A stretch of DNA of 64,000 nucleotides from the NCBI GenBank assembly GCA_049512075.1, contig JBEKXL010000004.1, positions 94,166 through 158,165 on the forward strand, given 5' to 3'. Within the stretch, counting starts at the first letter, position 1, and each line of letters begins with the position of its first letter. The notes beneath the pieces are model-generated. The model saw nothing but the letters and a program-made list of their open reading frames with translations, was not told the origin of the DNA and ran no database searches. Source of the stretch: Candidatus Bathyarchaeia archaeon. GTDB taxonomy: Archaea; Thermoproteota; Bathyarchaeia; Bathyarchaeales; Bathycorpusculaceae. Made by a program: the position numbers and the translations under genes. Shown piece after piece: positions 4,828 through 23,459 of the stretch.

Positions 4828-5546
4828 TTACGTCTCTGTGGTGGGCATGCTGTCAGGAACGAATCGCATGAGCTTTTGTAACGAACGCATTTTCTCCCTC
4901 TCTCCAACTCTTGCATTCTGTACCGCTTGCCTGAGAATTTGAATGGACTCGTCCATGGCTCTTCTGTCAACTGGACGGGGAACGCCGTCCTTTCCGCCGT
5001 ACGCGAAAGAGTATTTCACTGGGTCTTTCCAGCTCGGCTTTTCGCCGTAAATCACTTCTGCAACCAAGGCTAGGCCCCTAACCGTCGCGGGTCCGACACC
5101 TCTGAATCCGAGCAGTTCTTCATAGTTAGAGGGCTGGAACTCGTAGACGTCGCGCAGAGTCTTCCAGTTTGTGTTTCTAGGCATCGACAAATTGTCAAAT
5201 GGATATTCTTTCCAATCGTCTTCCGCGCTTCTGGGCAGCCATTCGCCCAGCGACTTCTGGAATTCGGGCCTCAGAGATTGTAGCATTCGGATCAACCTTT
5301 TCGGCTCTTCCTTCGTAAGATCGACTGAGGCCTTTCGACAGCCCTCACTCTCTTCTGCGGTCATGTCCAAGACCGTGTCATGTTTCACGTCGCCCACTAT
5401 CGCACTGTGCGGTTCAACGACAAAGCTTCTAACATTGTCTGAGAGCCAATGATAGCGCCTCGCCGTCCGGTCTTCGGTGCACATGCCCTGTTGCACGACC
5501 GCCCACTTCCTATTATCGGCAATGAAGAATGCGTGGTGATAAAGCT
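4828..5546 (-). pseudogene. DUF763 family protein, C-terminal part (interrupted by integrated element)
   Basis: Frame reads L-YHHAFFIADNRKWAVVQQGM...GVGPATVRGLAL...DPVKYSFAYGGKDGVP; in-frame TGA TAG lies just upstream inside the element. Confidence 0.9.
5541..5546. repeat. Left attachment core AAAGCT
   Basis: TGAT-AAAGCT-ATCA; identical hexamer at 23027-23032; joining the two restores the DUF763 frame. Confidence 0.88.
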
Positions 5547-5643
5547 ATCATTCGGCAAGTGGTGACATCTCCCGCACAATCCCCATTTTTTCTAACGTAA
5601 AGACTGCATCGTTAGCGGGTCTCACTTCTGGAAGGCGTGAACC

Positions 5644-5868
5644 ATGAGTGAAACACAAGAGAAACAGAAGAAAGAGCAAACAGAATGCGGATGGTTTGGC
5701 CACGCGGGTTGGTCAGCTAATCCCAATGACAAAGGCCTGCCTTTCGAATACTGCAAAGATTGTTCGAAACAGGAAAAATGCCGGAACAAGGACTTAGGCA
5801 ACCAGGAAGAGAATGCAATAGAGTCAGCCTATGATCAGATGTATGGACAAGAGGCTGAACAAGAATGA
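5644..5868 (+). CDS. Small Cys-containing hypothetical protein (element)
   Basis: C..G(H)...CKDC....C pattern; ATGA overlap with next ORF. Confidence 0.55.
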   Translation: MSETQEKQKKEQTECGWFGHAGWSANPNDKGLPFEYCKDCSKQEKCRNKDLGNQEENAIESAYDQMYGQEAEQE

Positions 5869-6071
5869 GTGAAAAGGACCAAATCATTAAGCCTCTAGGG
5901 TTTTTGAACAGAAAAGGCAGTAGACTCGGCAACTCAAAAGAGGCCACTCATTTCCATGCAACCGAAAAATATGATGATGGTTTGGAAATTAGAGCCAGGT
6001 GTGTTAAGCTGGCGTGTGAAATGTTGGCAGAAGACATCCTGGTAAAAGAGTACATGAAGGTGAAGAAATGA
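5865..6071 (+). CDS. Hypothetical protein (element)
   Basis: ATGA overlaps at both ends. Confidence 0.55.
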   Translation: MSEKDQIIKPLGFLNRKGSRLGNSKEATHFHATEKYDDGLEIRARCVKLACEMLAEDILVKEYMKVKK

Positions 6072-6190
6072 ACAAGCTAAAAGAAGCAATGTTGACCCTA
6101 GCAGCGATTTTGGGTTTAATTTGGATTTTAGCCACAGACCTTAACGAATTTTCCGAGTGGTTGGAACAACGCGCCGGGAGCTGGCTCTAA
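6068..6190 (+). CDS. 40-aa single-TM protein (not in ORF track)
   Basis: MNKLKEAMLTLAAILGLIWILATDLNEFSEWLEQRAGSWL*; overlaps upstream stop and abuts next ATG. Confidence 0.55.
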   Translation: MNKLKEAMLTLAAILGLIWILATDLNEFSEWLEQRAGSWL

Positions 6191-6502
6191 ATGAAGACAC
6201 GACTCGAAGTGACTGAGAAATTCGTTATCATCCACTCCCGAAATCATGACGACTTCAGCAGCCAATGCGGAAAGATTGAACATGAAGTCTCAGCGCGCTT
6301 TGAAATTGAAATTCCAGCAGAAGTCATAGCCTTGCTTCAGAACCTCAGACAATCTGGAAAGCTGGACCTGATAATTTCCTTGGAAGGCCAGCGCATGATC
6401 GACCTGAGAGATAAGGAACAAAAGAGTCCTTTCATTTCGGACGGCAGCAACGTTGTCAAGGGCAAAAACATTCTGCAAAGAATAGTCGCTTGGGTTCTAT
6501 GA
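6191..6502 (+). CDS. Hypothetical protein (element)
   Basis: 103-aa ORF, last of a tightly coupled run. Confidence 0.55.
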   Translation: MKTRLEVTEKFVIIHSRNHDDFSSQCGKIEHEVSARFEIEIPAEVIALLQNLRQSGKLDLIISLEGQRMIDLRDKEQKSPFISDGSNVVKGKNILQRIVAWVL

Positions 6503-6801
6503 CAGTAAATAGGGTAAATAAACAGGTGAACAGCTTTCAATTCTTAATATCAGCTATCTTGCTTCATAGCGTGGAATGTTTGATGAAATTTGTACCCCAA
6601 GACCTTTAGCTTTGTTAACATTTATTTCTTTACTTACAGCAGCAACGACTACACAGAGACACCTTGAGACTCAGTAAATAGTTTTGAAACATCAAGGCAC
6701 GGAAGTTTAAGGATAGATAAATAAGAATAAACTTACGAATAAAAGGATTCACGGGTTCATGGCAGCCCACGTTTTGTAGGATTGAGAAACACCAAAGTTT
6801 G

Positions 6802-6829
6802 CAGGGCTATTTACTGGTAAATAGCCGTG
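6802..6829. promoter_or_regulatory. 11-6-11 inverted repeat, candidate dif-like recombination site or operator
   Basis: CAGGGCTATTT-ACTGGT-AAATAGCCGTG; arms complementary at 10 of 11 positions. Confidence 0.45.
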
Positions 6830-6911
6830 TTTTCCATGCAGCCGAATAGGTTTAACATTCATAAGTAGTCGGGACGAGAGCTACAAGTGCGGGGTTAAGA
6901 CTGAATAAAGA

Positions 6912-7091
6912 ATGAAGGTCAACGTGGCAAGTAATTTCGATGTCGAAAATAGTTGCCATGATGAATTTCCAGCAAAGAAGGAAGGGTCCGCGTATGGAGT
7001 CCGAGACCGAAACAAAGAAGGGCGGTTCATTATGGAGATTGACGGTGAACTTAGCACGGTGCTAATTATCTCTCAGCAGCCGAATAGGTAA
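6912..7091 (+). CDS. Possible 59-aa hypothetical protein
   Basis: MKVNVASNFDVENSCHDEFPAKKEG...QQPNR*; just below the ORF-track cutoff. Confidence 0.3.
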   Translation: MKVNVASNFDVENSCHDEFPAKKEGSAYGVRDRNKEGRFIMEIDGELSTVLIISQQPNR

Positions 7092-7297
7092 ATGAATAAG
7101 TAAATAAAAGGTTAGCAGAAAGGCTATTCGGTATCTTTCTCGGTAAGTAAAAATATTAATAGGCATTGGGCTAGCCTAGTTCCTTCATATAATTCCTAGC
7201 CAGATTAGAACGATTCCAAGAGCTAAAACAGAGAAGCCTACAGCCATGCAGACATTTTCTAACATGTATTCGCTCATTGGATCCTCTTCAAGAAAAC

Positions 7298-8173
7298 TTA
7301 GCGATAACTCGGATTAGCCCTATTCATCTTTTCAGTCAATCCACGCCACCCGCGCTTTGCATAGCGGTTCGCAGTTTGCCAATCTTCCCATGAGAAATAG
7401 GCTAACAGATCAATGATTTCAAATTGGTAGTCATCGACTAACTGCGAGCTTCGCTGACTACGAAACCAATGAATCCATAGATGCAGCTCATCCGCGATTT
7501 TAACCTGTTCTTTTTTGCCGAGAACTGAAACCATGAAAGGTTCGTCAAGGCCCAGGCGCTGCTTCAGGTTCTTGGATGCTAGCCTATTTGTTTGCCGAAT
7601 ACACAGATAGGCCCACGTTGAAGTGTATGGCAGCTTCTTGTTAACGTCAAGTCTATCCGTGTCCACTGGTCCGTGAACTTTTTTAAAGTTTCTAGTATGC
7701 CGTTGCGGTGACGGAAACAAAAGGGCCTCAGGCTGTTCAATGCTGTTCAAGTGCTGCACGAGAAGAGCTGCCAGGGGTTCTCTTAACTGAATAGCGAATG
7801 GCTTCCTAGTCTTATAGAGTGTTTGAGTGTGCCAGCGTTTCTTCCCTTCCCCATCCACGTAAGAATCAAGTTTCACGTACCTTTTCAGCAGCCGCATTTT
7901 AGAAACCTTGACTACTCCCTCTTTTTCCATGACCTCAAAATTGTTCCGTTTCAACTGAAGAACTTCAGAAACCCTTCCTCCAGTTAGAAAGAGCGTAGCG
8001 AAAAACGCCTTTTGAATCGGCACTGTTATGAGGCTGAACAGTTCCAGCAGCGCGGTCCAGCCTACAAACTCTTCAATGTTCTCCGTTACTGAAAGCCTAA
8101 AATAGTCATGGCTGGCCCAGTATCCAACTCTGCTGGGTTCAAGAGAAGTTAAAGTTTCTATTTCAGAAATCAC
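7298..8173 (-). CDS. Tyrosine recombinase (second, internal)
   Basis: LFLTGGRVSEVL (R), LLKR (K), HWFRSQR (HxxR), FSW, RYA (Y); start tentatively GTG 8173. Confidence 0.82.
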   Translation of the reverse strand: MISEIETLTSLEPSRVGYWASHDYFRLSVTENIEEFVGWTALLELFSLITVPIQKAFFATLFLTGGRVSEVLQLKRNNFEVMEKEGVVKVSKMRLLKRYVKLDSYVDGEGKKRWHTQTLYKTRKPFAIQLREPLAALLVQHLNSIEQPEALLFPSPQRHTRNFKKVHGPVDTDRLDVNKKLPYTSTWAYLCIRQTNRLASKNLKQRLGLDEPFMVSVLGKKEQVKIADELHLWIHWFRSQRSSQLVDDYQFEIIDLLAYFSWEDWQTANRYAKRGWRGLTEKMNRANPSYR

Positions 8174-8404
8174 AATCACCTTCAGAAATACAAAGCTTCG
8201 AAACACGACTTGTGATAGTGCTTCACTGATTGATGACCTAGAATGTTTGTGCAACGTGCGCAAGATTTTGAAACTATCACGTCGCCAACTTCCAAAGGCT
8301 TGCCACATTTCTGTGAGGCACACAGACGGTGCTTGAAGCGGTTAATGTTGTTAGGTTCAAGCGTGACTGTTCTTTCAGAATGTGCCGTTTCCTTCCATCT
8401 CCTT

Positions 8405-11338
8405 TCAATGCTTCCTTCTATAGTCTATTATTGCGATCAGCAACACGATCAGGATGACAATTATGAGGCCTCCAACAAGGTATTGAGGAGGCACAAGCTG
8501 CCGGGTGTTTTTCACCGTTATGTTGATTTGAGAGTAACTTGTCAAAATGTTTCCCCAGGGGTCGCTAGAGGTAATGGTTATCTGGCCTTGGTAAACTCCG
8601 TCCTTCACATCGGGTACGTTAATCGTTAAGGGTATTGTTCCTGAACTGTTTGTGATTAGTGGAAGTTTCAAGGGCTGAACCCATGCGTTAATGGGCTGTG
8701 GAAAGTCTAAGCCTTCAATGACGAAAATGCTTTGGTTTGTGTAAGCTACGCTAGATGTGAAAGCGAAGGTGAAGTTAGCCATTACCCTGCTTGAAGGGTT
8801 AGAAGTGAAGTTAATATCGTTCACCTTGAGCGTTGAAACTATTGACGTGTAGCCGCCATCCGTTGTTGGTCCGGTCGGAGAACCTATGATTATTGGAATT
8901 GTGAAGCTGTCTTGACCGTTAATAGCGGAAACAGTCAAGGTTACAGGATAGACTCCCGCGGATTGGTAAGCGTGGGTGATTGTTGCCGTGTTGTTGTTTA
9001 CGCCGGGTGTGCCGTCACCGAAATTCCAAAGATAATTAGAGATTGTCGCGGTAGCATTAGACTGTTGAGCGTTGAAGGTTACGGTTTGGCCTGGACTCGG
9101 ATTGAAAGGCGTGTAGGTGAATCGTGCATAGATGTAGTTGTTCCAGAAGTAAGCGGTAATGTTCACGCTGTCTATAAGCTGAGTTTGTTCTGAATTGCTA
9201 TACCCTAATTCTTTTCCGATTTGGGTTAGGCCTGATGTGCTGATGGTTGCTGAGATTAAAAAGCCTTTTTCTTTTCCTATTATGACGGTGCTGGACGGAG
9301 TTATAGTGTTGCTGGAAGTGTAGGCTTTCTCTATTCCGCTGGATTGTGTGCTTGAAATCTTTGGAGTTTCAAACAGAAAGTAAAAGAAGTTTAATCCTGC
9401 CGAATAAATTTGATTGACCGTATTTGTAAAACCTGAAATTATAATAGATTCTGAAGGCGAATAGTTTGTTTCAATTCCAGAAGTCGCGGTGAAGCTTGTG
9501 GTTATGATTCCTGAAGCTGTAAAACCTTTTTCAATACCTGAAGTTGAAGTGCTTGTTATGGTCACGGTGCTACTGGGAGAGTAGCCTATTTCTTTGGAAA
9601 AGCTAGAGCTGGAAGCTAAAGAGAGCGTGTTCGCGGGTGCAAACAGTCTTTCCAGTCCGCTAACAACCATTGAGGATAGGCTTAATGCTTCTGAAGATGT
9701 GAATCCTCTCTCGATGCCAGAACTTGAAAGACTCGAAACGGCTAGAGTGCCAGAAGGTGAAAAGGCTCTTTCTATTCCGCTGGAGATTATGGCTGAAATG
9801 GTTAGCTGATTCGAAAGTGAAAAAGCGTTTTCTGCCGCTTTGCTTGTGCTTCCTTGAACGGTTAAGGCTTCGTTTGGACTATAACTATACTGCGCTCCTC
9901 CTGCGCTTGCTTGCATGATGGCATCGGCAATTATAATCCAATAAGCTGAACCACAAGTGAAATTAACTGCTGCGGCAGACTGAGTAGCTGAAACAACCTC
10001 ATACTCTGTACCAATCTTGGCAGTGCATTGGATGGTTGTAAACCCAGCACCTACTGAAGGCACATTTGCGCTAGGACTTGCCATTCCAATTATGAAGTCA
10101 TTAGCGTTAGAAGTTGTAATTGAAACTGTAGGATCAGCACTTAACCCACCACTTGCAGAAGGGTTGGCTCCCGCATTAGAATCGAAAATAGTTGTGGTAT
10201 CAGCCCCGCTGATTCCGAATGCTACTCCCCTTTGATATTCATTTGGTGTGCTAGTCATTGTGACGGTTACATTGATTCCACCATGACTTGCCCAAGTTGC
10301 ATACCATTCCTCTATGACGTAGCGATAAGAATGGTACATGACTATGGTTTTTCTTTGCGCCCAAGTAGAAGTCGAAACATTGGCGGATATGCTACTGACA
10401 TTTACATAGAGATTATCATCAATCGCGACGGAAGAAACAATTAGCACATCATTATCTGTTGAAGTCGAGAAAACCAATGAGTATATAGTTGCGGTGAAAT
10501 TGGTTTTTAATACGCTTCCGTCAAGAGCTGTAGGGTCTAGGTACACTGGAAAAACAGCACCGTCAATGAAGGCTTTAGGAATCCTTATGTTCACAATTAA
10601 AATGCCGTTGTTAGCCGTGACCGCGTAAACTCCGAGCGTCTTGTTTCCAGCACTATCCTCAATGTATGGTTGCGGAAGCCAATAGACCGTGTTGTTCTGA
10701 GCATCATTAAAGTCTACCGTGCCATTAGTCATGAATTTCTGGTTAGTCGGATGAAGATAGCCAACACCGTTAGCATAAATCGTTAAGGAATTATTGAAGT
10801 AACAGTTAGCAACGTACTGGAGATAATCAGGTTTTATGGAGCTTGAAGGCGCACTAACATTGTGAATTATCAAAGTTTCCTTTAGCTGGTCTTGAAAGGC
10901 TTGATACTGCAAGTCCGTGTTTATCCATGCTCCAGAATAGGTTAAGACGCTACTTCCTTCTGTAGTGTTGGCTTGAGTATTTTGAGGGTTCATTTCCTGA
11001 ACCATGCCAATTATCGCGTCATAGCTGGAATTGTACCAGTGCAGTTGGCTTGTGCTAATGTCCATGTCAAACGTGTAGCCTTGATATTGAAATCTCACGG
11101 CTTTCGAGCTTTTAGAATCATTCTTGAAGTACGCTTGATACGTTCCGTTTGCCATAAACGCATAACTCACATTGTCACTGTTAATTATGGGAATAAACGG
11201 TATGCTAGAACTTGCTTGACCGTCAATAGTTGCAGAAGCATGAACAGAAGGCACAAACTCGGAAACACTTAGGAAGCTAACAAGTAACAAAACCGTTATG
11301 AAGACTGTGAATGTTCGTTTTCTTTTCATTTTCTGCAC
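8405..11338 (-). CDS. 977-aa type I membrane surface protein (signal peptide, 20-aa repeats, PKD and Ig-like domains, C-terminal TM); spike/adhesin-like
   Basis: N-terminal signal ...VHA-S; SGIER/K repeats; PKD motif YLWNFGDG...HAY...G.Y.VTLTV; TM followed by YRRKH. Confidence 0.8.
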   Translation of the reverse strand: MQKMKRKRTFTVFITVLLLVSFLSVSEFVPSVHASATIDGQASSSIPFIPIINSDNVSYAFMANGTYQAYFKNDSKSSKAVRFQYQGYTFDMDISTSQLHWYNSSYDAIIGMVQEMNPQNTQANTTEGSSVLTYSGAWINTDLQYQAFQDQLKETLIIHNVSAPSSSIKPDYLQYVANCYFNNSLTIYANGVGYLHPTNQKFMTNGTVDFNDAQNNTVYWLPQPYIEDSAGNKTLGVYAVTANNGILIVNIRIPKAFIDGAVFPVYLDPTALDGSVLKTNFTATIYSLVFSTSTDNDVLIVSSVAIDDNLYVNVSSISANVSTSTWAQRKTIVMYHSYRYVIEEWYATWASHGGINVTVTMTSTPNEYQRGVAFGISGADTTTIFDSNAGANPSASGGLSADPTVSITTSNANDFIIGMASPSANVPSVGAGFTTIQCTAKIGTEYEVVSATQSAAAVNFTCGSAYWIIIADAIMQASAGGAQYSYSPNEALTVQGSTSKAAENAFSLSNQLTISAIISSGIERAFSPSGTLAVSSLSSSGIERGFTSSEALSLSSMVVSGLERLFAPANTLSLASSSSFSKEIGYSPSSTVTITSTSTSGIEKGFTASGIITTSFTATSGIETNYSPSESIIISGFTNTVNQIYSAGLNFFYFLFETPKISSTQSSGIEKAYTSSNTITPSSTVIIGKEKGFLISATISTSGLTQIGKELGYSNSEQTQLIDSVNITAYFWNNYIYARFTYTPFNPSPGQTVTFNAQQSNATATISNYLWNFGDGTPGVNNNTATITHAYQSAGVYPVTLTVSAINGQDSFTIPIIIGSPTGPTTDGGYTSIVSTLKVNDINFTSNPSSRVMANFTFAFTSSVAYTNQSIFVIEGLDFPQPINAWVQPLKLPLITNSSGTIPLTINVPDVKDGVYQGQITITSSDPWGNILTSYSQINITVKNTRQLVPPQYLVGGLIIVILIVLLIAIIDYRRKH

Positions 11339-11577
11339 TTCTCCATCATTTCTCGGTACTTGTGTTTTGCGAAATATCCAATGTAAACGATTGTTGGAAA
11401 AACCAGGGCAAATTCAACGGAGATTATGACCATGTTAGGTTCAACACCGTAGAAATAGCCTAAGAAGAATATGCTTGTGATCACAACTATTCCGAGAGCT
11501 GAAAAGACGATTATCAGCGACATGCCTATTGCATGGACTAAAACTTTCTTCCAGTCTAACGGACGAAGATTTTTCAT
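11326..11577 (-). CDS. Two-TM small membrane protein (element)
   Basis: Two hydrophobic helices; overlaps the start of the 977-aa gene. Confidence 0.65.
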   Translation of the reverse strand: MKNLRPLDWKKVLVHAIGMSLIIVFSALGIVVITSIFFLGYFYGVEPNMVIISVEFALVFPTIVYIGYFAKHKYREMMEKCRK

Positions 11578-11579
11578 TT

Positions 11580-11777
11580 CTATATTTCTCCCAAAGCATC
11601 AAAATTGCCCTTGATAAGCGTCAGGTTGCCGTTTGAAAAAAGAACCATAATGCAAGATTCACCCATTGGACTATCTAGGAAGCCACAGAGAACACCGCTG
11701 ACCCTGTAGTCTTCGATAACGACTTGAACCTGACGATTTTTGAAAAGACAAACCAAATCGCTGTTCATGTTTTTCAT
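11580..11777 (-). CDS. Small protein with Sm/Lsm-like pattern
   Basis: VQVVIEDYRVSGVLCGF...LTLIKG resembles Sm1/Sm2 motifs. Confidence 0.45.
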   Translation of the reverse strand: MKNMNSDLVCLFKNRQVQVVIEDYRVSGVLCGFLDSPMGESCIMVLFSNGNLTLIKGNFDALGEI

Positions 11778-11896
11778 TCCTCAGAAGGTAGTTTAGAGTG
11801 TTTCTTATTCCCGATTCTGGAAAGCTCTCCACGAGTTAGAAGGCCGACTACGAAGCTGAGGAAGGCTATCACGAGAACGTATGTATCTTCAATCAT
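11774..11896 (-). CDS. 40-aa single-TM protein (not in ORF track)
   Basis: MIEDTYVLVIAFLSFVVGLLTRGELSRIGNKKHSKLPSEE*; ATGA overlaps at both ends. Confidence 0.6.
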   Translation of the reverse strand: MIEDTYVLVIAFLSFVVGLLTRGELSRIGNKKHSKLPSEE

Positions 11897-12105
11897 CTGT
11901 GTGGACCTCTCTTTTTGGAAAGCATCATCATTGAAACGATTAAGCCGAAGCTTATGCAGACTAAACCAAATGCAAAGCTTTCATGGTGAAGAAACTGGCT
12001 CCAATCCCACCAGTTGTTCCAAACCAAGTATTGTTGAAACATGACAAAGAAGGCTACTGTAACAAGAAGAACAGCAAGAAACTTCACGTTGCTTTGCTTG
12101 GTCAT
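11893..12105 (-). CDS. Two-TM small membrane protein (element)
   Basis: Two hydrophobic helices with a WNNWWDWSQFLHHE loop; ATGA-coupled. Confidence 0.65.
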   Translation of the reverse strand: MTKQSNVKFLAVLLVTVAFFVMFQQYLVWNNWWDWSQFLHHESFAFGLVCISFGLIVSMMMLSKKRGPHR

Positions 12106-12371
12106 TGGTTGAGACTTCTCCCACTTTTGTTTCGAGTCTGAAGGATCCTAAGGAAGACGAATGCACCTATCGTGAAGCAGAACATGAAGGCTAGTAGCTG
12201 AAAGTTACCAACTAGAAAAGACATGAAATCTTTCAAACTTTGAGGAATTATATGTAAGCTGTCTCCAATTATGTAGAACAGTCCATAAACAAGGCCTGCT
12301 AAGGCTATTTTTGATATTACGCTTGCCCAGATTTTCGATTGAACACTTTTCTTAGGCATTCTATATACCAA
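12102..12371 (-). CDS. Two-TM small membrane protein (element)
   Basis: Hydrophobic helices and basic termini; ATGA-coupled to next gene. Confidence 0.65.
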   Translation of the reverse strand: MVYRMPKKSVQSKIWASVISKIALAGLVYGLFYIIGDSLHIIPQSLKDFMSFLVGNFQLLAFMFCFTIGAFVFLRILQTRNKSGRSLNQ

Positions 12372-12434
12372 GCCTACTTTTGTTGTTCATTCTCGGACAA
12401 GCATTGCATTTGAAAAGCCTTTCATTCAATCGCC

Positions 12435-14163: not shown

Positions 14164-14168
14164 TTTGT

Positions 14169-14720: not shown

Positions 14721-14849
14721 CGTATTTGCCTCCTAATGGTTGTAGTAGTGAGGTATAATTCAATTTATACCTAGTCTTAATAAGACTTGTTGAGTCTATA
14801 TAAAGATTCAGGAATAATCTTCTAGTAGAATGTTCAAGGGAATTCATTA

Positions 14850-15350: not shown

Positions 15351-15445
15351 TTGAATCGAACTACTCTTCTCATTCGAATCTAATCTAGCGACTTTCACAT
15401 TTCTTTGAACATGCGACAGAGAAAAAAAGGGAGATAGAGGTTTTC

Positions 15446-15649
15446 TTAAAACCTTTCGTCCTTGAGTATCTCACGGAAAACAGGCCCTAACTCGTTCCAC
15501 TTTATGACCTCTTCGCCGGTGGTTGCTTCCAAGTCTGACCTTATCGCGTCCACGATGTTGTATTCAAGGAAGGGAATTGGGTCCAGGCCGTAGTGGGTAG
15601 GTGTGTTTCTCAGAAATTCCATAAGGATCCTTGGAACCTTCAACGTCAC
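15446..15649 (-). CDS. Small hypothetical protein (RHH-like N-terminus)
   Basis: VTLKVPRILMEFL; same frame as the upstream gene. Confidence 0.45.
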   Translation of the reverse strand: MTLKVPRILMEFLRNTPTHYGLDPIPFLEYNIVDAIRSDLEATTGEEVIKWNELGPVFREILKDERF

Positions 15650-15700
15650 CGTTTCATACTCGATGGGCTGTCGGACATTTTCTTTTGATGCTTTCGTGTT

Positions 15701-16279
15701 CTATTTCTCCTCTTCGTCTGGATTATAGCCATGTGTCCTTTCATTGAACCGTTCAAGCCAATCGGAAGGGTTCAGGCCATGCGTTCCAGCGAACTTTTCA
15801 AGATCACCGTTCAAGCTTTGCACCCTGGCATAGATGGCTTTCATGCAGAAAGTTTCTACGTCGTCCTTGCAACCGAAGAACCGCAGGTACTCTTTAATGA
15901 AGTCTAGGAAGGGACTGATCACGGTTATTTTGAGCTGCACCATTTCACCCATTAGGTCATGTTTCCAGTTTGGATGATTCTTTCGCCAGAGCTGCTGACT
16001 GTTGAAAACCGTTGCTTTTTCTGTCCCGGACCCAGTGACGATCTCGATGAAGTCTCCTGCATCGAGCCAACTTCTTAGTTTCGCATATTGTTCAGCGTTC
16101 AAGGGGACCTCTAGGAAAGGCTCGTTCTGTTCAGGCTGATCAAACGTGGTCGCAGACTTGAAAAGAAACGCAACGTATTCCTCGACAGTCATGTTCTTGT
16201 TGTCTGCAAGCTCTTTCAGAGCCTTGTAGGTTGCGCCTTCTACACAGATTTTCTTAGTGGCTTCTGTTTCAGTTTCCAT
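15701..16279 (-). CDS. Hypothetical protein with N-terminal RHH-like segment
   Basis: KICVEGATYKALKELADNKNMTVEEYV; start trimmed to ATG 16279. Confidence 0.6.
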   Translation of the reverse strand: METETEATKKICVEGATYKALKELADNKNMTVEEYVAFLFKSATTFDQPEQNEPFLEVPLNAEQYAKLRSWLDAGDFIEIVTGSGTEKATVFNSQQLWRKNHPNWKHDLMGEMVQLKITVISPFLDFIKEYLRFFGCKDDVETFCMKAIYARVQSLNGDLEKFAGTHGLNPSDWLERFNERTHGYNPDEEEK

Positions 16280-16541
16280 GCTTTGAATCCTCCACCTTTG
16301 CCGGTTCTTCTTTTTGCTCTGACCAGAATATGCCAAGCTTCTTTTTGACCTCTTCATCATACCTTTTGGCTGCGATGCAATAGGCGTCTTCTATACGGCT
16401 GTGCAGAATGTCGAACAGTTTGGGAGCTGGAATGGGGTGGGGTATGGCTTGGGCCTCGCCTTCTAATAGACTCGCGCAGTCAAGGAAGCCTCGCAAGTAG
16501 TCAAGCTCTTTCTCTTGAAGTGTGTCTTCAGCGTCTTTCAT
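16269..16541 (-). CDS. Hypothetical protein (element)
   Basis: 90-aa ORF preceded by AGGAG. Confidence 0.5.
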   Translation of the reverse strand: MKDAEDTLQEKELDYLRGFLDCASLLEGEAQAIPHPIPAPKLFDILHSRIEDAYCIAAKRYDEEVKKKLGIFWSEQKEEPAKVEDSKHGN

Positions 16542-16668
16542 TTTCTCTTTTCTCCTTTTGTGTGAAAGCTAGTATATCTGACCAAGTATATAAGTTAAAT
16601 CCACAGTTTAATAATTGGTTTGTAACTGGGTTTAGTATTGTTCGCGGTCCGAACAAGAATAAGCAAAG

Positions 16669-17622
16669 CTACCGTTCCTTCTTTTCTTCTGTTTCTAATT
16701 TTTCCGATTCAGAAGAACCCGGAGGAGTCGAAATAATCGTTTCCTCAGTCATGCCTGAAGTAATGGGTTTTCGAGAGCGTTTTATCCGCTTCCAATAACG
16801 ACTCCAATGCTTCATCACTTCACGGTCATGTTCACACCGTTCTGTCATCTGTTCCAAGGTAGTATCAGCTAAGGCGGTCAGTTCCTTGTCAAGTTTGAAG
16901 ACTGGTAGAAAATCCTCTCGGCTGTCTGGATGGAAAAGAACTATTCTAACAAATGTTTCCTTTCTTATTTCTTCAGCACGTGCAAGTGCTTTTTTGGTTC
17001 CCCATTTAATGAGTGCTCTCTCTTCAGCAGTGTCAATTTGAGCATTAAACAGGGAAATGCCAAAATCTTCTATGAGTGACGATATATTCATAGCTTTTTG
17101 TTCCTCAGTCTTTTCCCGGGGCACAGGAACAAATTCTAAGTCGCCTTGTGATGTTATGTTCTTTTCTTTCTCAATCAGCGTTAGGGGATAATAATAATTT
17201 CTGAAATAGTTTTTCACGTTCTCGATGATCCTGTTCTTCAGGCCATGAACAGTGAAGAATTGCCACTTTCCGAGTACCGGGGGAAGTAATTTCTCGTGTT
17301 GACAGGCGATAGCATCAAAATCCTTTTCCTGTAATTTATCAAGAGTTAGAGCAAAATATTGGAGCAGCCCCTCCAGTGTCATATCATAAGAGTCAACCTT
17401 CAAGCTGGGGTTTTTCGATGATGGCTCAGATTTTGCTTTCACTATTAAGTGATTCTCAAGTAAATCGCTGATCGTGTCATGTATGTTACCGTAACTTCTA
17501 TGCAAAAGGCGTTTGAGTTCCCATCGGTTTTTAGGTTCTCCTGTTGCTAGGAGTTGTAGAATAGCTAGGTTTGTTGGTTCTTTGGTTCGTGGTTTTCTTT
17601 CATGGGATACTATCTTTGTCAT
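16669..17622 (-). CDS. Winged-HTH protein, candidate element repressor
   Basis: N-terminal wHTH (NRWELKRLL..SYGNIH.TI..L...LI...YDMTLEG); divergent from the replication operon. Confidence 0.7.
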   Translation of the reverse strand: MTKIVSHERKPRTKEPTNLAILQLLATGEPKNRWELKRLLHRSYGNIHDTISDLLENHLIVKAKSEPSSKNPSLKVDSYDMTLEGLLQYFALTLDKLQEKDFDAIACQHEKLLPPVLGKWQFFTVHGLKNRIIENVKNYFRNYYYPLTLIEKEKNITSQGDLEFVPVPREKTEEQKAMNISSLIEDFGISLFNAQIDTAEERALIKWGTKKALARAEEIRKETFVRIVLFHPDSREDFLPVFKLDKELTALADTTLEQMTERCEHDREVMKHWSRYWKRIKRSRKPITSGMTEETIISTPPGSSESEKLETEEKKER

Positions 17623-17693
17623 AGTCTACTGATAAGTGACAAAAGATATATATACTTATCGCTGTACGTACTACTATCTTAGAGGAAAGACAG
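17623..17693. promoter_or_regulatory. Divergent promoter with palindromic TATA box and flanking inverted repeat
   Basis: TATATATA 17647-17654; GATAAGT 17631-17637 and ACTTATC 17654-17660. Confidence 0.55.
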
Positions 17694-17963
17694 ATGCCCG
17701 CAAAAATATTCAGAAAGGTTCTCAAATCCGGCGCTTCAAAATGCGCTGCGTTACCACCTGATTGGCTACGCATGTTCAACCTACGGGTAGGCGACGACCT
17801 TGACATTATCTACAATTCCATAGTTATCGTGAAAGCAAAAGACTTCAAAATTGACCCAGAATTTCTGAAAAAAGAATTCAAGTTGATTCTTGATTTGGAA
17901 AAGAATGCTCAGGACCGCGTTGGACTGAGAAAGAAGAGCCAGGAGGCCAAGGCCATTGAGTGA
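17694..17963 (+). CDS. AbrB/MazE/SpoVT-family DNA-binding protein
   Basis: RKVLKSGAS...LPPDWLR..NL.VGD.L motif. Confidence 0.8.
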   Translation: MPAKIFRKVLKSGASKCAALPPDWLRMFNLRVGDDLDIIYNSIVIVKAKDFKIDPEFLKKEFKLILDLEKNAQDRVGLRKKSQEAKAIE

Positions 17964-18246
17964 AGACACGGTTGATGTCCTTCTCAAAATTGGAAACCGA
18001 TTCTACGAAGGCAAACTACACCCTCAAAAAGTAGGATCACCCGCAAAGCTTCCAAGCAACAAACCCGTTTTTCCAGAGCCCTATCAGCAAATGTTGGATA
18101 CAACAGATCAAGGAACATACTGGCAGATAAAACCGAGAACTTTCTTACAAACTTTCGATTTTGCAGAAATCGCTAGAATTGTAAAGCAGTATGGCGGAGC
18201 TTACGTTTCTGCTGGAAAGTCCTCCCATTTTCGTATACCAAAATGA
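17956..18246 (+). CDS. Hypothetical protein (element)
   Basis: Overlaps upstream stop; 96 aa. Confidence 0.6.
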   Translation: MSEDTVDVLLKIGNRFYEGKLHPQKVGSPAKLPSNKPVFPEPYQQMLDTTDQGTYWQIKPRTFLQTFDFAEIARIVKQYGGAYVSAGKSSHFRIPK

Positions 18247-18267
18247 AATACCGCTGGGGGTCACAGC

Positions 18268-19083
18268 ATGACATGGAAGCCTAACGCTGAAACCAAACAG
18301 CTCCTAGATTTTTGCGTTGCCACAATAAAGAGCGTTCCGTACAAACCTAATCTCCGCTGGCTGTTCTATCGTGCGCTACAGAGTGGCCTCCTGAAGGATA
18401 AGGGAGAAGCCAGCGTTCACAAGTTTGACTATGCCCTTTCCCGCGCTCGCAAAGAGTTTTATGATGAATGGAAACCCGACAGCCTAGAAGATAGTGTACG
18501 GCAAGGATTCTGGAAGGGAGAGTTTTTCGCTGGCTACGATGTAAGGCTAGATAACATTGAAGAACAGGAGAACTATGTTCAGGTTTGGTTTGAAGCCTAC
18601 GCCATGTTCCAACAGTTCACCCATTACACGCAACCTTACCGGGTGTCCTTAGTTCCGTTTCGCGGTGACTGTTCTATTCCGTTGAAATGGGAATTGGCTA
18701 AGAAGCTGGAAGAAATCAACGGATCCTATCACAAGCCAACCAAGATTCTATACTTTGGAGATTATGACCTTAAAGGCTTCCAGATTCTTGAGGCTGCATT
18801 GAAGGATATTAAGGCATGGTGCAACGTGCCTTTCACCGTTGAACGTGTTGGCCTCACACTAGAACAGGTCAAGGAGTACGGCATACCTGAAAACCCTGAG
18901 CACCCTGACGCATATCAGTGGGAAGCATTGAACGATAAACAAGCTGGAACATTGATAATCAACAGTATAGCCAGCCTAGTCAAACCAGTTTTACCCGGGT
19001 TGGAAGAGCAGGAGAAGCTGATAAAATCCAAGATTAACACCGCTATGGTCACGATTCTGCAACAGGAAGGCGTTATCGAATGA
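18268..19083 (+). CDS. wHTH-Toprim protein (Topo VI-A/JetD-C-like)
   Basis: LRWLFYR N-terminus; VWFEA, FRG, ILYFGDYDLKG (DxD), ERVGLT..Q, WEAL. Confidence 0.7.
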   Translation: MTWKPNAETKQLLDFCVATIKSVPYKPNLRWLFYRALQSGLLKDKGEASVHKFDYALSRARKEFYDEWKPDSLEDSVRQGFWKGEFFAGYDVRLDNIEEQENYVQVWFEAYAMFQQFTHYTQPYRVSLVPFRGDCSIPLKWELAKKLEEINGSYHKPTKILYFGDYDLKGFQILEAALKDIKAWCNVPFTVERVGLTLEQVKEYGIPENPEHPDAYQWEALNDKQAGTLIINSIASLVKPVLPGLEEQEKLIKSKINTAMVTILQQEGVIE

Positions 19084-19172
19084 ACGACCCCAAAGACGCC
19101 GACATTAAAGCTGCAGCTCAACGCGCGCTACGAGTATCTCAGCGGAGACGGAGACTAACAAACCATGACTGA
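19080..19172 (+). CDS. 30-aa basic coupling ORF (not in ORF track)
   Basis: MNDPKDADIKAAAQRALRVSQRRRRLTNHD*; overlaps both neighbours. Confidence 0.4.
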   Translation: MNDPKDADIKAAAQRALRVSQRRRRLTNHD

Positions 19173-21774
19173 AAACTCCGCCATACCTGAGCAACTTAGA
19201 ACATGGTGTTTCATACTTCTCTCAGGACACACTAAGATTCCAACGGCTGAAATGAAAGGATGGGCTAAAGACCGAGCAAACAAAACATTCACGTATGATG
19301 ATAAGCGGTTCATAGAACATATCACCGCGCATGAAAACTACGGTGCTGTGACTGGCGAGGACCGCTTTGTCGTGGCCGCCGACACTAAGGAAGTTGAAAC
19401 AGCCATTGAAGAGCATCTACCTAAAACCTTCACTGTGCAGAGTCCAAGACATAAGACTAAACATTTTTACTTCTATGGAAAACTCAGTCGAACAATACTC
19501 TGTAAACCGACAACTGAAGGCGATCCTTGCGCTGACATTAAAACTGGAAATGCCTATGTACTCAGTGCTGGAGACATTTTTGAAAATTACGGCAAATACA
19601 CCGTGATAGACAATGTGCCAATAGCAACAATCACGGAAGAGCAATTACTAGCCGCGATAGATGAGTTTATACTACCTAAAAAGGAAACACGTTTTCTAAC
19701 CATAACAAGCGAAAAACACGATAAGAACTTGGACTTTCCAATCACCTCTATTCTTCCAAACCTTGACGCTTTAACACAGAACAACGATGAAATGTTTGGT
19801 CCTCATCCTCTACATGGCAGCACAACAGGAGCCAACTTTCACGTAAACACGGCTAAGAATGTGTGGCACTGTTTCAGATCGGGACATGAAAGCGGCGGCG
19901 GCCCCCTGGAACTATTCGCGGTTCTAAACGGAATCGTCAACTGTGAGGACTGTCATAAAGGCGTACTACATGGAGAGCTATTCAAAAAAACCGTTATGCT
20001 AGCACATGAAAAAGGCTTAGTGGCCTCTATATCTTTTCAAGATTCAGAAGAGCAAGAGGATAAAGAACATGAACTTATGCGAAAAGTCGTAACAGGCCTT
20101 CAGTCTCAATTCACGTTCAAAACGCCTAGCGATATTGAAGAAATCTATGTTTTTAATAAGGGCGTTTATGAAGAGGCTGAAACGATGATTAAAGGCCAGG
20201 TTGAACAGTGGCTAGGGACCGAGGCAACCACACATTTTATTGAGGAAGTTCTCGGACATATACGCCGTAGTAGTTACGTTAAGCGCTCAGAGTTTAACAA
20301 ACCATCAGCTATTATCCCGGTGCAGAATGGCCTTTTAGACTTGAACAGTGGTGAGGTCAGTCCATTCGATAAAGAACAAATCTTCACATTCAAACTAAAT
20401 ATGGTCTATGATAAGACAAAGAAGTCTCTCAAATTTCTGAAAGCTGTACATGAATGGCTAAACTCTCAAGACGTTATTACCCTGCAGGAAGTCTCAGGAT
20501 ATTGCTTACTTCCAGCTATGCCTTTTCATAAGTTGTTTTTCCTTCATGGAACGGGATTCAATGGGAAAGGGAGCTTCATAAGAACATTAATCGCCATTTT
20601 TGGAATTGACAACTGTTCAAACCTGAATCTGGAAGAGTTTGACGGTAACCACCGATTCGCTACGGCTCTACTCTATGGTAAAATGATAAACACGTCTAGC
20701 GAGCCAAAAACAGATAAACAATTACAAACGAATTTATTGAAAAAGGTATGCGGCGAAGACTACATAGACTCTGAAGTGAAAAACAAACAGAGAAGAATAC
20801 ACCATGTGAGCGCCGCTAAACCTTTCATTCTTGGAAACAGATTCCCACGAGTAAACGATAACACAGTGGCCTTTTGGGAACGCGTAACAATACTCAAGTT
20901 TCCATCAAATTTCATAGGAGACAAACAAATACCATGCATCTGGAACACATGGATAAACGATCCTGATGAAATGAGCGGGATCCTAAACTGGATGATTGAA
21001 GGGCTACAGAGACTAATAAAAAACAACAAGTTCACCGAAAGCAAAGATTCTGAAGAGACAAAGCTGGAATTTCAAAGAGCCAGTGACACAACATTAGCGT
21101 TTCTCAATGAATGTTGCACTATTGACCGAGTAACTCAAAACATAAAATCCGACTTCTACGACCAGTACAAAACCTATTGCGAAAAGCTCAACGTAGAAAT
21201 AGACCCTGAGAACATGTTTTCAGCAAAACTCAAGCAACAGTCAGGGGTCAGAAGTACAAGACAGCATGTAGAAAAAAAACTTGAACATTTATGGGTCGGC
21301 ATAAAATTCAACGATTATCCTAAAGAAGAGGGAGAGGAAGAAAAATCTGAAAAGTCAGGGAAACAAAAAAATCATGGAACTCAAAAGAAACTAGACCAAA
21401 GTGTTCCACCTGTTCCAACTGTTCCACCCTTTACAAAGTCAAACGCTGTAGAAGATAGTAAGGGTATAGAAAAGAGAAGTAGTAAAAGGTATGGAACACC
21501 TGGAACAGGTGGAACAGTCATCGAGTCAATAGGGAAGACTGTTCCAGACGTTCCAACAGAAATAAGCAAACAATTAGAAAAGGAAAACTTGACCGTTAAC
21601 CGCTGTAAGAAGCATCGTACAGCAACCTGCCCACATCCTAATCGCGACTGCATAGCGCCGACTAATTCGTGTCCAAAGACTTGTGGAGATTTTGTTTCTG
21701 TGGAGGATGACGCTAAGGCTAAGGGTGCAGCTCTCGAGTTGAATGGTGACAGTGGGAGGCTAGGGCATGACTGA
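19165..21774 (+). CDS. Primase-polymerase / Zn-binding / P4-D5-type SF3 helicase replication protein
   Basis: Prim-Pol-like N-terminus (NYGAVTG, TFTVQS..HFYF); HPLHGS...WHCFR; IPVQNGLLDL; Walker A GTGFNGKGS; AFWERV. Confidence 0.88.
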   Translation: MTENSAIPEQLRTWCFILLSGHTKIPTAEMKGWAKDRANKTFTYDDKRFIEHITAHENYGAVTGEDRFVVAADTKEVETAIEEHLPKTFTVQSPRHKTKHFYFYGKLSRTILCKPTTEGDPCADIKTGNAYVLSAGDIFENYGKYTVIDNVPIATITEEQLLAAIDEFILPKKETRFLTITSEKHDKNLDFPITSILPNLDALTQNNDEMFGPHPLHGSTTGANFHVNTAKNVWHCFRSGHESGGGPLELFAVLNGIVNCEDCHKGVLHGELFKKTVMLAHEKGLVASISFQDSEEQEDKEHELMRKVVTGLQSQFTFKTPSDIEEIYVFNKGVYEEAETMIKGQVEQWLGTEATTHFIEEVLGHIRRSSYVKRSEFNKPSAIIPVQNGLLDLNSGEVSPFDKEQIFTFKLNMVYDKTKKSLKFLKAVHEWLNSQDVITLQEVSGYCLLPAMPFHKLFFLHGTGFNGKGSFIRTLIAIFGIDNCSNLNLEEFDGNHRFATALLYGKMINTSSEPKTDKQLQTNLLKKVCGEDYIDSEVKNKQRRIHHVSAAKPFILGNRFPRVNDNTVAFWERVTILKFPSNFIGDKQIPCIWNTWINDPDEMSGILNWMIEGLQRLIKNNKFTESKDSEETKLEFQRASDTTLAFLNECCTIDRVTQNIKSDFYDQYKTYCEKLNVEIDPENMFSAKLKQQSGVRSTRQHVEKKLEHLWVGIKFNDYPKEEGEEEKSEKSGKQKNHGTQKKLDQSVPPVPTVPPFTKSNAVEDSKGIEKRSSKRYGTPGTGGTVIESIGKTVPDVPTEISKQLEKENLTVNRCKKHRTATCPHPNRDCIAPTNSCPKTCGDFVSVEDDAKAKGAALELNGDSGRLGHD
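21402..21555. repeat. Iteron-like TGTTCCA repeats, candidate replication origin
   Basis: Direct copies at 21402, 21411, 21420; inverted at 21492, 21501, 21510; direct at 21540 and 21549 (CGTTCCA); 9-bp period. Confidence 0.7.
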
Positions 21775-22993
21775 AAACTCCACTAAATCAGTCATTAACG
21801 CAGTGCTCACAAAGGTACTAAGGACATGTGATAAATGCCAAATAAAAACTGTTTTGTGCTGTCCTCAATGCAATTCTGATAAAATCGTGAAGGACGGTAT
21901 GAGGCAATCCGTCTATGGAGAACAGCAACGTTACCTATGCAAGTCGTGTTATCTCCGATTCAGCAACAGCGACCCCGAAACAAAGGTGCAGAATCTGCAC
22001 AATTCTTTTAAGGAAAGTCAGACAGAAAGCGGATGCGTCCAAATATGCGCTGAAAAGAAAGGAGTAGCGAAAAACTTGGACAACGCAACCATTGAGAAGG
22101 TTGCGGGAGAAACTCCAGATATTAAAGGCAAATTGGTACAGTACGCTTGGCAACTGACGAAACGCGGATTAGCTGAAGAAACCGTGAAGCATCGCCTTTA
22201 CCGTTTGAACGTGCTTGTAAAGAAAGGAGCTGACCTAACTAATCCTGAAACCGTAGAAACAATCCTGGCAACGGAACAATGGACACCTGGAAACAAACGG
22301 TTCTTTATCATGGCATACCAAAGTTTCTGTCGAACTATGAACATTGAATGGGTAGCCCCCCGAAACAAGTGGCAACCTCCACAGCCCTTCATACCCTTGG
22401 AATCAGAAATAGACGCATTGATTTCTGGCACTGGAAAAAGAACGGCCACACTACTGCAAATTTTGAAGGATACCGGGGCACGAATAGGAGAAGCCTCACA
22501 CCTACGATGGACAGACGTAAACATGGAAAACAGCACCATAGCCATAAACAACCCTGAAAAAGGATCATCATCTAGGACGCTGAAAGTGTCAAGCAAAACT
22601 ATCGCTATGCTTAACGCCCTGCCAAAGAAAGGCCCTTTCATATTCAACGTCAAACCGCGCACCCTGGAAAGCACGTTTGACCGTCAACGGAATAGGTTAG
22701 CCCTTAAACTTCAGAACCCAAGACTGAAACAAATCCACTTTCACACCTTCCGGCACTGGAACGCAACAATGACATACCACAAAACCCGAAACATACTGCT
22801 AGTCAAATACCGACTGGGACATAAACGCTTAGAAAACACGGAAGTTTACACGCACTTGGTAGATTTTGAGAACGACGAATACGACAGTGCAGCAGCTCAA
22901 ACAAAGAATGAGGCAAGACAACTTATAGACACAGGATTCGACTACGTGACCACAACCCCGGACGGTTTCATGCTGTTCAGAAAACGGAAGTGA
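21767..22993 (+). CDS. int: Tyrosine integrase with N-terminal Zn ribbon
   Basis: CPQC...RYLCKSC; DTGARIGE, PEKG, HFHTFRH, LGH, EVYTH; adjacent to the att core. Confidence 0.92.
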   Translation: MTENSTKSVINAVLTKVLRTCDKCQIKTVLCCPQCNSDKIVKDGMRQSVYGEQQRYLCKSCYLRFSNSDPETKVQNLHNSFKESQTESGCVQICAEKKGVAKNLDNATIEKVAGETPDIKGKLVQYAWQLTKRGLAEETVKHRLYRLNVLVKKGADLTNPETVETILATEQWTPGNKRFFIMAYQSFCRTMNIEWVAPRNKWQPPQPFIPLESEIDALISGTGKRTATLLQILKDTGARIGEASHLRWTDVNMENSTIAINNPEKGSSSRTLKVSSKTIAMLNALPKKGPFIFNVKPRTLESTFDRQRNRLALKLQNPRLKQIHFHTFRHWNATMTYHKTRNILLVKYRLGHKRLENTEVYTHLVDFENDEYDSAAAQTKNEARQLIDTGFDYVTTTPDGFMLFRKRK

Positions 22994-23024
22994 AAAGCAT
23001 GGTATCCAATCAAAAAACAATGTA

Positions 23025-23459
23025 TCAAAGCTGATACCCTGCCTGTACGGCCGTGTTGTCAACTTTGGCGCTCATTCTGCTGGCTCGGCGCAGAGCCTCG
23101 ACGTTGTCGTCTGAAAACCCAAATTCTTCTCCGACTGTGCCTATTTCCATTGGTGCCTTTCGAGAGGCTCTGCCTTTTCCGCCGCACACAGCGATACCGT
23201 GCTGCTGAGATGAGATGGCTTGTTTCAGAATTCCTGTCACAACCGTGGTTACTCCTGAAGAATGCCAGTCGTAACCTAGGACGCAACCCAATGCTTGGAA
23301 CCAAAATGGATCTGAAACTCGTCTCAGAAACTCGTCTGAGCCGTACTCGTCAACGATGATTGTCACTATTTCTTTGGCCATCTTTTGCATGCGTACAATT
23401 AGATATTGAGGCGCCCTACCATAATGAAGTGGGAGTCTGGCAATGCCTGTTCTTTGCAC
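23025..23459 (-). pseudogene. DUF763 family protein, N-terminal part
   Basis: GIARLPLHYG, SDPFWFQALGCVLGYDWHSSG, SRMSAKVDNTAVQAGYQL, then a TGA created at the junction. Confidence 0.9.
23027..23032. repeat. Right attachment core AAAGCT
   Basis: GTATC-AAAGCT-GATAC; matches 5541-5546. Confidence 0.88.

Follow-up and report, generated by a model that had tools for sequence, protein, structure and literature searches.

The subject of this study is an integrated element that splits a conserved gene of the DUF763 family in an archaeon of the class Bathyarchaeia, at a codon that other elements also occupy within the same archaeal order. The stretch analysed, called the window throughout, comprises 64,000 nucleotides of a Candidatus Bathyarchaeia archaeon genome (assembly GCA_049512075.1, contig JBEKXL010000004.1, positions 94,166 to 158,165 of the forward strand), and the sequencing runs holding it are peat, wetland, freshwater and sediment metagenomes, with no RNA run among the 24 listed. 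In this window, 17,486 bases are inserted into the sole DUF763 gene of the genome, separating L144 from Y145, and the plus-strand sequence AAAGCT stands at both junctions: core copy 1 at 5541-5546, where the C-terminal half resumes, and core copy 2 at 23027-23032, where the N-terminal half ends. Both copies were placed by alignment with empty sites (see below), in which the six letters fit either side of the joint. Between the cores lie 17,480 bp of element sequence (5547-23026) with a G+C content of ~0.40-0.46, below the 0.48-0.51 of the flanks, and the ends of the insert carry neither terminal inverted repeats nor a direct repeat longer than the 6-bp core.

Two open halves of a single gene

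The N-terminal half (23025-23459, minus strand) is an open reading frame (ORF) of 144 amino acids running from 23459 to 23025. It ends in AGYQL followed by TGA, a stop codon made of the last core base (T) and the first two bases of the element (GA). The C-terminal half (4828-5546, minus strand) extends from the L144/Y145 junction to residue 381 and the stop codon. Its frame below 5546 reads PLAE, then two stop codons contributed by the element, then LYHHAFF, and stays open until the stop at 4828; the earliest possible start codon is a GTG at 5496, 16 codons in. Both pieces match Pfam family PF05559, the N-terminal one covering profile positions 1-139 of 319 (E 8.7e-62) and the C-terminal one positions 139-319 (E 1.5e-63), and the 2.73-Mb, 99.8%-complete assembly has no DUF763 match besides them. 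The frame readings agree with a first-pass annotation of the window, which had claimed that the junction creates the stop of the N-terminal half and that two in-frame stops precede the C-terminal half. The same annotation had joined 433 and 713 nt into a continuous ORF of 381 amino acids with no lesion in either half; this arithmetic is correct and both pieces are open. Its restart of the C-terminal half is off by one base (CTT begins at 5544), which is trivial.

Misassembly was rejected as a cause of the split. Contigs of run X1 (records 1 and 7) span both junctions, and a further metagenome locus (L185) is 100% identical to the window. The X1 contigs and L185 may share source data with the window assembly and were not counted as independent; independent support comes from the same architecture in other genomes, as described below. 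Directly 3' of the DUF763 stop codon, the intergenic segment 4640-4800 is a dispersed repeat with 15 matches in its own genome, and contigs from X1 and X7 have loose ends at 4662-4789, inside this repeat.

Empty sites define the borders and the age of the insertion

Three natural empty sites were found. A genome of the same genus (G002, locus L020), from a sister species, carries an uninterrupted DUF763 gene of 381 codons that reads AGYQLYHHAFF across the site; when it is aligned to the window, the left flank ends at 5546 and the right flank begins at 23027, and the two alignments overlap by exactly the six core bases. In run X7, a freshwater metagenome from another study, a 29,138-nt contig joins 5540 directly to 23027, skipping 17,486 bases, with six letters that fit both sides; it differs from the window at 3 and 10 positions in ~1.2 kb on the respective sides. 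Metagenome locus L184 is also empty, with 99.3% identity over 5,546 nt of the left flank, 99.1% over 9,974 nt of the right flank and, again, a 6-base overlap. The window insertion is precise and younger than the ~0.5-0.9% divergence of its flanks. A crossover in AAAGCT had been predicted to yield G-Y-Q-L-Y-H-H, and all three empty sites match this prediction; likewise, the proposal that the insertion could simply be recent is true of the window copy, given that strains at 99.1-99.5% identity are empty. In a possible source run of the window, the empty-site form was not found among the contigs, from which rare variants are dropped.

The same codon is occupied by divergent elements

To place the split gene in context, 401 genomes of the order were surveyed and 15 with split-like matches were examined closely. 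Divergent elements sit at the codon cut in the window in six or more additional genomes, and also on metagenome contigs; these counts are lower bounds, because ~30 further genomes with partial DUF763 matches were not among the 15. In five of the genomes the cut at this codon is bordered by a 6-bp core, as in the window. Four of them belong to genus g17, with inserts of ~14.5 kb (G238), ~13.5 kb (G290), ~4.3 kb (G264) and ~4.6 kb (G312), and the fifth (G183, genus g48) shows the N-terminal half only, its contig beginning within the element. Since one codon is cut with a 6-base repeat in five further genomes, chance is excluded. In all six cases including the window, the integrase gene converges on the N-terminal half, which ends at an immediate stop formed by the last core base and two element bases. 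Read in the direction of the gene, the core sequence is AGCTTT four times and AACTCT twice, each following the synonymous codons of its host genome, and the element arms beside it are recognisably alike between elements. The integrase is the only gene that the window element has in common with the others at the DUF763 site, at 37-58% identity. In G264, the element arm also supplies an in-frame start for the C-terminal half, giving an ORF of 263 amino acids. The sixth genome, G155, belongs to another family of the order and has an 18-bp repeat over AGYPLY, the same motif, with an integrase gene co-directional with the N-terminal half. The suggestion to look for DUF763 genes split at the same codon by divergent elements has thus returned a positive answer, from the five genomes with 6-bp cores, from G155 and from the metagenome loci.

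The remaining candidates were rejected. In G324 and G148, the reading frame continues across the codon, and the contig breaks off 25-45 nt beyond it; the end of contig C137 and the start of C61 in G324 overlap by ~18 codons, and contig C14 of G148 likewise ends near the codon. These breaks would fit an assembly fork caused by mixed occupied and empty strains. Four genomes (G359, contig C8; G387, C18; G184, C5; G001, C1) have adjacent, frameshift-type splits without an insert, which are either pseudogenes or assembly errors, and three others (G039, G053 and G265) show contig ends or partial matches. G085 does have an interrupted gene (locus L084, C5:5800-24900), cut at a different codon, after RRYHW at about residue 176, by an insert of ~14 kb (locus positions ~2520 and 16580). 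This insert has a 17/18-matching inverted repeat at its ends and no integrase homologue, features that mark it as a transposon-like event independent of the integrase site.

A second architecture and rapid turnover

The most unusual thing seen is a second, chimeric architecture at the same site. Among 2,677 cluster-representative matches, one protein of 420 amino acids (P0088) has first 118 residues of which 116 are identical to the window's N-terminal half, and continues through AGYQLY into an in-frame tyrosine integrase sharing only 34% identity with that of the window. Two further chimeras of this kind, P0153 and P0155 (P0155 on a contig of 200,558 nt), belong to the 90% cluster that contains the window's N-terminal half; in all three, the N-terminal half is ~98% identical to that of the window. 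Scanning metagenomes with P0155 uncovered locus L183, in which a 5.6-kb element with a 20-bp repeat over AGYQLY occupies the gene of a more distant host. Here, DUF763 positions 1-144 and a PF00589 domain form one ORF (L183:9926-11275), and the opposite end supplies an ATG followed by 18 element codons that continue in frame into the DUF763 C-terminal half (L183:15905-16609). From these junctions we infer the layout of the free L183-type element, no free form having been found: the repeat would lie inside the integrase ORF, and integration would separate the first integrase codons from the rest. The 5.6-kb element also has a minus-strand gene (L183:14204-15271) whose product matches the RelA/SpoT synthetase family PF04607 (E 4.3e-17).

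The window's own element recurs on further contigs, at L185 and, for the protein P0157, on four contigs. Among strains that are ~98-99.5% identical at the locus, three states are therefore represented: the empty site (X7 and L184), the window's element and a different element.

Gene content of the window element

The intact tyrosine integrase lies at the edge of the element (21767-22993, plus strand; 408 amino acids, PF00589 E 8.9e-20) and carries an N-terminal zinc ribbon. Its stop codon is 33 nt from the core, the gene converges on the N-terminal half of DUF763, and the ORF is uninterrupted after integration, as in classical type II elements, in which attP (the attachment site of the element) lies outside the ORF. 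Seven integrases from DUF763 sites, when aligned, all have the catalytic residues R239, R329, H352 and Y361. In NCBIfam the window integrase is closest to archaeal XerA, but its 84 bits fall short of the 220 cut-off. The second box of the window integrase reads HTFR (within IHFHTFRH) and not YxxR, as in the pNOB8-type signature R...YxxR...Y described in the available part of PMC8371274, and for this reason the window element was placed outside the pNOB8 family.

Upstream of the integrase lies a replication protein of 869 amino acids (19165-21774, plus strand) with a PrimPol N-terminus and a D5/P4-type primase-helicase (TIGR01613, E 1.9e-51; phrog_864, E 8.4e-67), preceded by a Toprim/topoisomerase-like protein (18268-19083, plus strand; phrog_6247, E 1.1e-18, with a weak JetD_C match). 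The minus strand encodes a protein with an HVO_A0114-like winged-helix N-terminus (16669-17622; PF25212, E 6.6e-7), a winged-helix regulator resembling ArsR/MarR (14169-14720; HTH_20, E 6.1e-8) and a PKD-domain protein of 977 amino acids with hydrophobic N- and C-terminal stretches (8405-11338; PKD_4, E 3.7e-17), which is probably cell-surface cargo. When 10 element ORFs were scanned against PHROGs, the named functions were integrase, primase and topoisomerase-like only, with one more ORF assigned to a family of unknown function; capsid or packaging hallmarks were absent, though small archaeal capsid proteins could escape detection. Neither a transposase nor Cas1 was present among the scanned ORFs. 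By its gene content, we class 5547-23026 as an integrative, plasmid-like element with a classical (type II, non-split) integrase.

A second, very divergent integrase-like ORF of 341 amino acids (7298-8323, minus strand) scores below the PF00589 cut-off (E 3.3e-4, 20.9 bits versus 27.1) and could be a remnant or a nested element. The segment 7294-7346 next to it is common to much deeper contigs of runs X1 and X6. Record 26 of X7, a 16.6-kb contig with the depth of the empty-site strain, matches within 5623-16657 of the window and includes a close relative of the cargo part (6673-13261, 158 differences); it is without the primase/integrase module and has different ends. Loose ends common to several runs lie at ~6000, 13385, 15449-15480 and 20765-20931. 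The cargo relative and the shared loose ends point to a mosaic family of elements that may exchange modules.

Relatives of the integrase

Members of the integrase family are present in 356 of the 401 genomes, often in several copies. Among the 29 best non-self integrase loci, a transfer RNA (tRNA) gene lies within ~140 nt downstream of the integrase stop codon in 13 and at ~400 nt in one more; three share another short intergenic motif, and one is the DUF763 site of G183. The general statement that archaeal elements often target tRNA genes therefore extends to this family, on the strength of these 13 relatives. A query with the single protein returned no relatives from genome_contigs or viral_contigs; an alignment query of viral_contigs gave 12 loci, one of them (L207) beside a tRNA gene and none with DUF763 nearby.

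A maximum-likelihood tree covered 30 integrases; the six left out were a duplicate, three sequences containing stops and two of short length. Three integrases from DUF763 sites in genus g17 form a clade with 100/100 support on a long branch, and the tree did not resolve the positions of the window and G183 enzymes among integrases of tRNA and other sites. As drawn, the tree needs two changes of the DUF763-site label, and a single origin is compatible with its strongly supported branches.

Conservation and predicted fold of DUF763

Of 41 relatives, 36 have a DUF763 gene, as do 303 of the 401 genomes surveyed; high-quality genomes number 238, and the gene was found in 196 of these and not found in 42. 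Sulfolobus acidocaldarius likewise has a member of the family. L144, Y145, H146 and H147 are invariant across 22 orthologues, and AGYQLYHH is among the best conserved stretches of the protein. A first AlphaFold model, built from 22 close sequences, was poor (predicted local distance difference test score, pLDDT, 55.1) and was replaced by one using an 81-sequence alignment (m2a60e4706bd5, modelled on the DUF763 protein of G002, L020:1489-2631), with a pLDDT of 84.3 and a predicted template modelling score (pTM) of 0.84. Residues 143-152 of this model make up a single strand within the central sheet, a block with pLDDT 96-98. The cut would thus fall inside a core beta-strand and not at a domain border, so that two independent pieces are unlikely to fold.

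None of the 58 Foldseek matches listed against the PDB reached E <= 0.001 (best E 0.51), and the fold may be one without a solved representative. By sequence, no PDB relative was found (the best match, at E 0.0079, is an unrelated protein), and the protein has no NCBIfam family and no lead from the Atlas. It does carry a GVGPATVRGLAL-type hairpin motif, with a weak match to ComEA (E 0.76). In the window, DUF763 lies directly downstream of two host genes on the same strand, phosphopantetheine adenylyltransferase (23502-23990) and CoaBC (24029-25282). The adenylyltransferase is present in the fetched flanks of 55 of 100 DUF763 loci (L003-L022 and L091-L170) and CoaBC in 12, which suggests a possible link to coenzyme A metabolism; this is a lead and not a function.

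Discussion

The explanation that we consider likely is that the middle of DUF763 is a recurrent host attachment site (attB) in a conserved but dispensable gene, occupied through integrase-mediated recombination, subject to fast turnover, and tolerated rather than used. The element's own classical tyrosine integrase would have recombined a site on the circular element with DUF763 via the 6-bp overlap core, which falls within codons Q143-L144-Y145 of the host's single copy of the gene; with no free circle or attP found, this recombination partner is one that we infer from the integrated form. The AGYQLYHH stretch acts as a recurrent attachment site for several element lineages in the order, and the conservation of this motif by itself can account for the choice of landing site, given that the elements dock at one of the best conserved stretches of the protein. 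Integration cuts DUF763 short at L144 by an immediate stop and deprives the C-terminal half of a start; because the cut lies inside a beta-strand of the modelled core fold, an occupied gene most likely yields no active protein. As with every site-specific integration, the gene would be rebuilt automatically if the same integrase excised the element precisely. Because many relatives can dispense with DUF763 and turnover at the site is fast, the cell most probably tolerates the disruption.

Several observations weigh against this account. The 6-bp identity is shorter than any archaeal attachment (att) site that we found in print, the shortest in the available parts of PMC6563490 and PMC8371274 being 8 bp, and a target-site duplication would likewise explain why the core always agrees with the host sequence. 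Searches of contigs and collections yielded neither a free circle nor an attP sequence for any of these elements: the predicted 22-nt circle junction had 0 matches in metagenome_contigs and 0 in viral_contigs, and the circle joint (23026 to 5547) was absent from the contigs of runs X1, X5, X6 and X7, with the proviso that assembled contigs drop rare variants. The DUF763 halves are free of stops and frameshifts in seven of seven genome cases (one half in G183), and the term 'tolerated' draws on the dispensability of the gene and on a few decayed copies. The latter comprise a frameshifted integrase in G238, a C-terminal half frameshifted near residue 310 in L183 and a shifted stretch across the most conserved motif in P0046. 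Finally, at least two integrase lineages and two architectures converge on one mid-gene codon, which could point to selection for the disruption itself.

The pair G238 and G290 deserves particular attention in this regard. Both are occupied, and in a comparison of 120 genomes of the genus, 87 of which carry the gene, their DUF763 sequences are reciprocal best matches. The ratio of non-synonymous to synonymous substitutions (dN/dS) between them is 0.077 for the N-terminal and 0.069 for the C-terminal half, at a synonymous divergence (dS) of ~1.0-1.2. If the insertion was ancestral to both, these values would imply selection on the split gene. The catalytic parts of the two integrases are 91% identical (dS 0.85), and the interiors of the two elements are unrelated. 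These unrelated interiors, together with the turnover seen within species, make independent gains plausible. The window halves themselves gave dN/dS values of 0.19 and 0.15 against G002, which reflect the history before insertion; they are uninformative about selection on the split gene because the insertion is far younger than the divergence from G002.

A bolder interpretation, which we regard as unlikely, is that the middle of DUF763 has become an exploited docking codon with fast turnover, on which several integrase lineages converged and through which a possibly DNA-binding protein is reversibly silenced. The integrase start of one lineage would then mimic host codons, and both junctions would be open as chimeric genes, with a host promoter driving the fusion of the DUF763 N-terminal half to the integrase and an element promoter driving the C-terminal half. 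Were this true, competing mobile elements would together form, at the level of the archaeal population, a system that turns a host gene on and off.

It is distinctly unlikely, in our assessment, that the elements aim at the middle of DUF763 because silencing the host protein helps them, for instance if a helix-hairpin-helix protein hinders foreign DNA. Such targeting could explain why at least two groups of integrases that are not resolved as one clade (the fully supported g17 group, with the window and G183 enzymes elsewhere) use this site, and why the second architecture, with its 34% identical integrase and 18-20-bp repeat, targets the same motif. It would also suit the finding that no element brings a substitute for the part of the gene that it displaces (in the available part of PMC6563490, by contrast, the 14 protein-gene insertions of thaumarchaeal elements are 3'-distal), as well as the GVGPATVRGLAL-type motif with its weak ComEA match. 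However, neither NCBIfam, nor PDB sequences and folds, nor the Atlas offers a lead to DUF763 function, and its commonest neighbour is a coenzyme A gene and not a defence gene. A single origin of the site specificity is compatible with the tree, and motif conservation alone accounts for a good landing site.

Regulated excision (active lysogeny), in which the element leaves DUF763 under a particular condition and full-length protein is made when needed, is very unlikely on present evidence. Excision would rebuild the ORF exactly, the integrase is intact, the halves are lesion-free in the window and six other genome cases, the N-terminal half ends at an immediate stop in six of six, empty and occupied forms coexist among near-identical strains, and dN/dS is low in the occupied pair G238 and G290. 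However, exact restorability is common to every site-specific integration and does not demonstrate use, and the intactness of the window halves is uninformative given the young age of the insertion. Three states at 98-99% identity indicate fast turnover, and the gains in G238 and G290, with their unrelated interiors, may be independent. An excision junction was missing from the contigs of four runs and from two collections, a weak point given that contigs drop rare variants. The first-pass annotation had proposed either a regulated switch or a recent insertion; a recent, restorable interruption by a mobile element is what the data support, but regulation is disfavoured by the 42 of 238 high-quality genomes in which DUF763 was not found and by the frameshifts in the G238 integrase and in the L183 and P0046 C-terminal halves.

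A transposon that duplicates six bases of its target, in place of integrase-mediated recombination, is highly improbable. The duplicated bases are always the host's own, even at synonymous differences, and no identity extends beyond them. However, the window element has no terminal inverted repeats, and neither transposase nor Cas1 occurs among its scanned ORFs; the only gene common to the elements is a tyrosine integrase beside the same junction. One single codon is used across genera, and the arms next to the core are conserved, as expected of recombinase binding sites. The overlap region of tyrosine recombinases usually measures six to eight bases, which fits an integrase. It is scarcely credible that the two halves still function as a two-piece protein with nothing switched off: both pieces are open and element arms provide in-frame starts for the C-terminal half in G264 (263-residue ORF) and L183 (ATG and 18 codons), but in the window this half sits behind two in-frame stops, with its first possible start 16 codons in (GTG at 5496), and the modelled cut lies inside a central-sheet strand and not between domains.

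Taken as a recurrent attB in the middle of a gene, the DUF763 site widens the concept of the archaeal attachment site. Most known archaeal integrative elements sit in tRNA genes or at the 3' ends of protein genes and spare their target; here, the gene is destroyed in its middle, the site is reused by unrelated elements, and 6 bp of identity are involved. The integrase/attB pairs could also be of value for Bathyarchaeia, a class without genetic tools, and excision and turnover can be tested in public peat and freshwater metagenomes, which contain strains with an empty site, with this element or with another. DUF763 itself is worth characterising, since it is widespread, has no convincing PDB neighbour and frequently adjoins a coenzyme A gene. 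The importance of the locus would rise considerably if regulated excision were demonstrated or if DUF763 acts on foreign DNA.

Comparison with known systems

The sigK skin element, the Listeria comK prophage and the Anabaena nifD element are bacterial excision switches. As in these systems, a recombinase-bearing element interrupts an ORF in the window, and precise excision would rebuild it. Unlike them, occupancy of the DUF763 site is polymorphic among near-identical strains and not fixed in a lineage. The bacterial switches are defined by regulated excision and a need for the rebuilt gene, whereas the DUF763 case presents the sequence logic only.

The chimeric elements (L183, P0088 and P0153/P0155) resemble those with SSV-type suicidal integrases, known from hyperthermophilic archaea, as covered by the available parts of PMC7253208 and PMC8371274, in that the repeat lies inside the apparent integrase ORF; the window's own integrase is not of this type. 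In contrast to the SSV-type, the integrase domain of L183-type elements is PF00589 and not PF16795 (Phage_integr_3), they live in mesophilic archaea and hit a protein gene, and each junction remains an open chimeric ORF, with the DUF763 N-terminal half joined to the integrase at one and the integrase start joined to the DUF763 C-terminal half at the other.

The closest counterparts of the window element are the classical type II elements of archaea. According to the available part of PMC8371274, which distinguishes type I (suicidal) from type II (classical) integrases, att sites usually measure 40-60 bp, and the portion of PMC6563490 available to us describes 68 thaumarchaeal elements with defined sites, 39 of them in tRNA genes, 15 intergenic and 14 in protein genes, all of the latter in 3'-distal regions, with att sites as short as 8 bp. 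For Bathyarchaeia viruses, the accessible part of PMC10848311 mentions integrases and not attachment sites. DUF763 was not encountered as a target in the literature searched, although the supplementary target lists of PMC6563490 might name a homologue. With the classical elements in those available parts of PMC6563490 and PMC8371274, the window element shares a whole integrase gene at its edge, short flanking direct repeats, a primase-helicase module with no capsid genes recognised, and tRNA genes next to 13 of 29 relatives of its integrase. It differs from the thaumarchaeal elements, as far as they are described there, in its host class, Bathyarchaeia, and in a target that is hit in the middle of a protein gene and destroyed, as opposed to a 3'-distal position; its repeat of 6 bp compares with a shortest reported length of 8 bp. 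The window element is thus of an ordinary kind at an unusual site, which lies in mid-gene, is destroyed by integration, is used recurrently and shares 6 bp of identity with its occupants.

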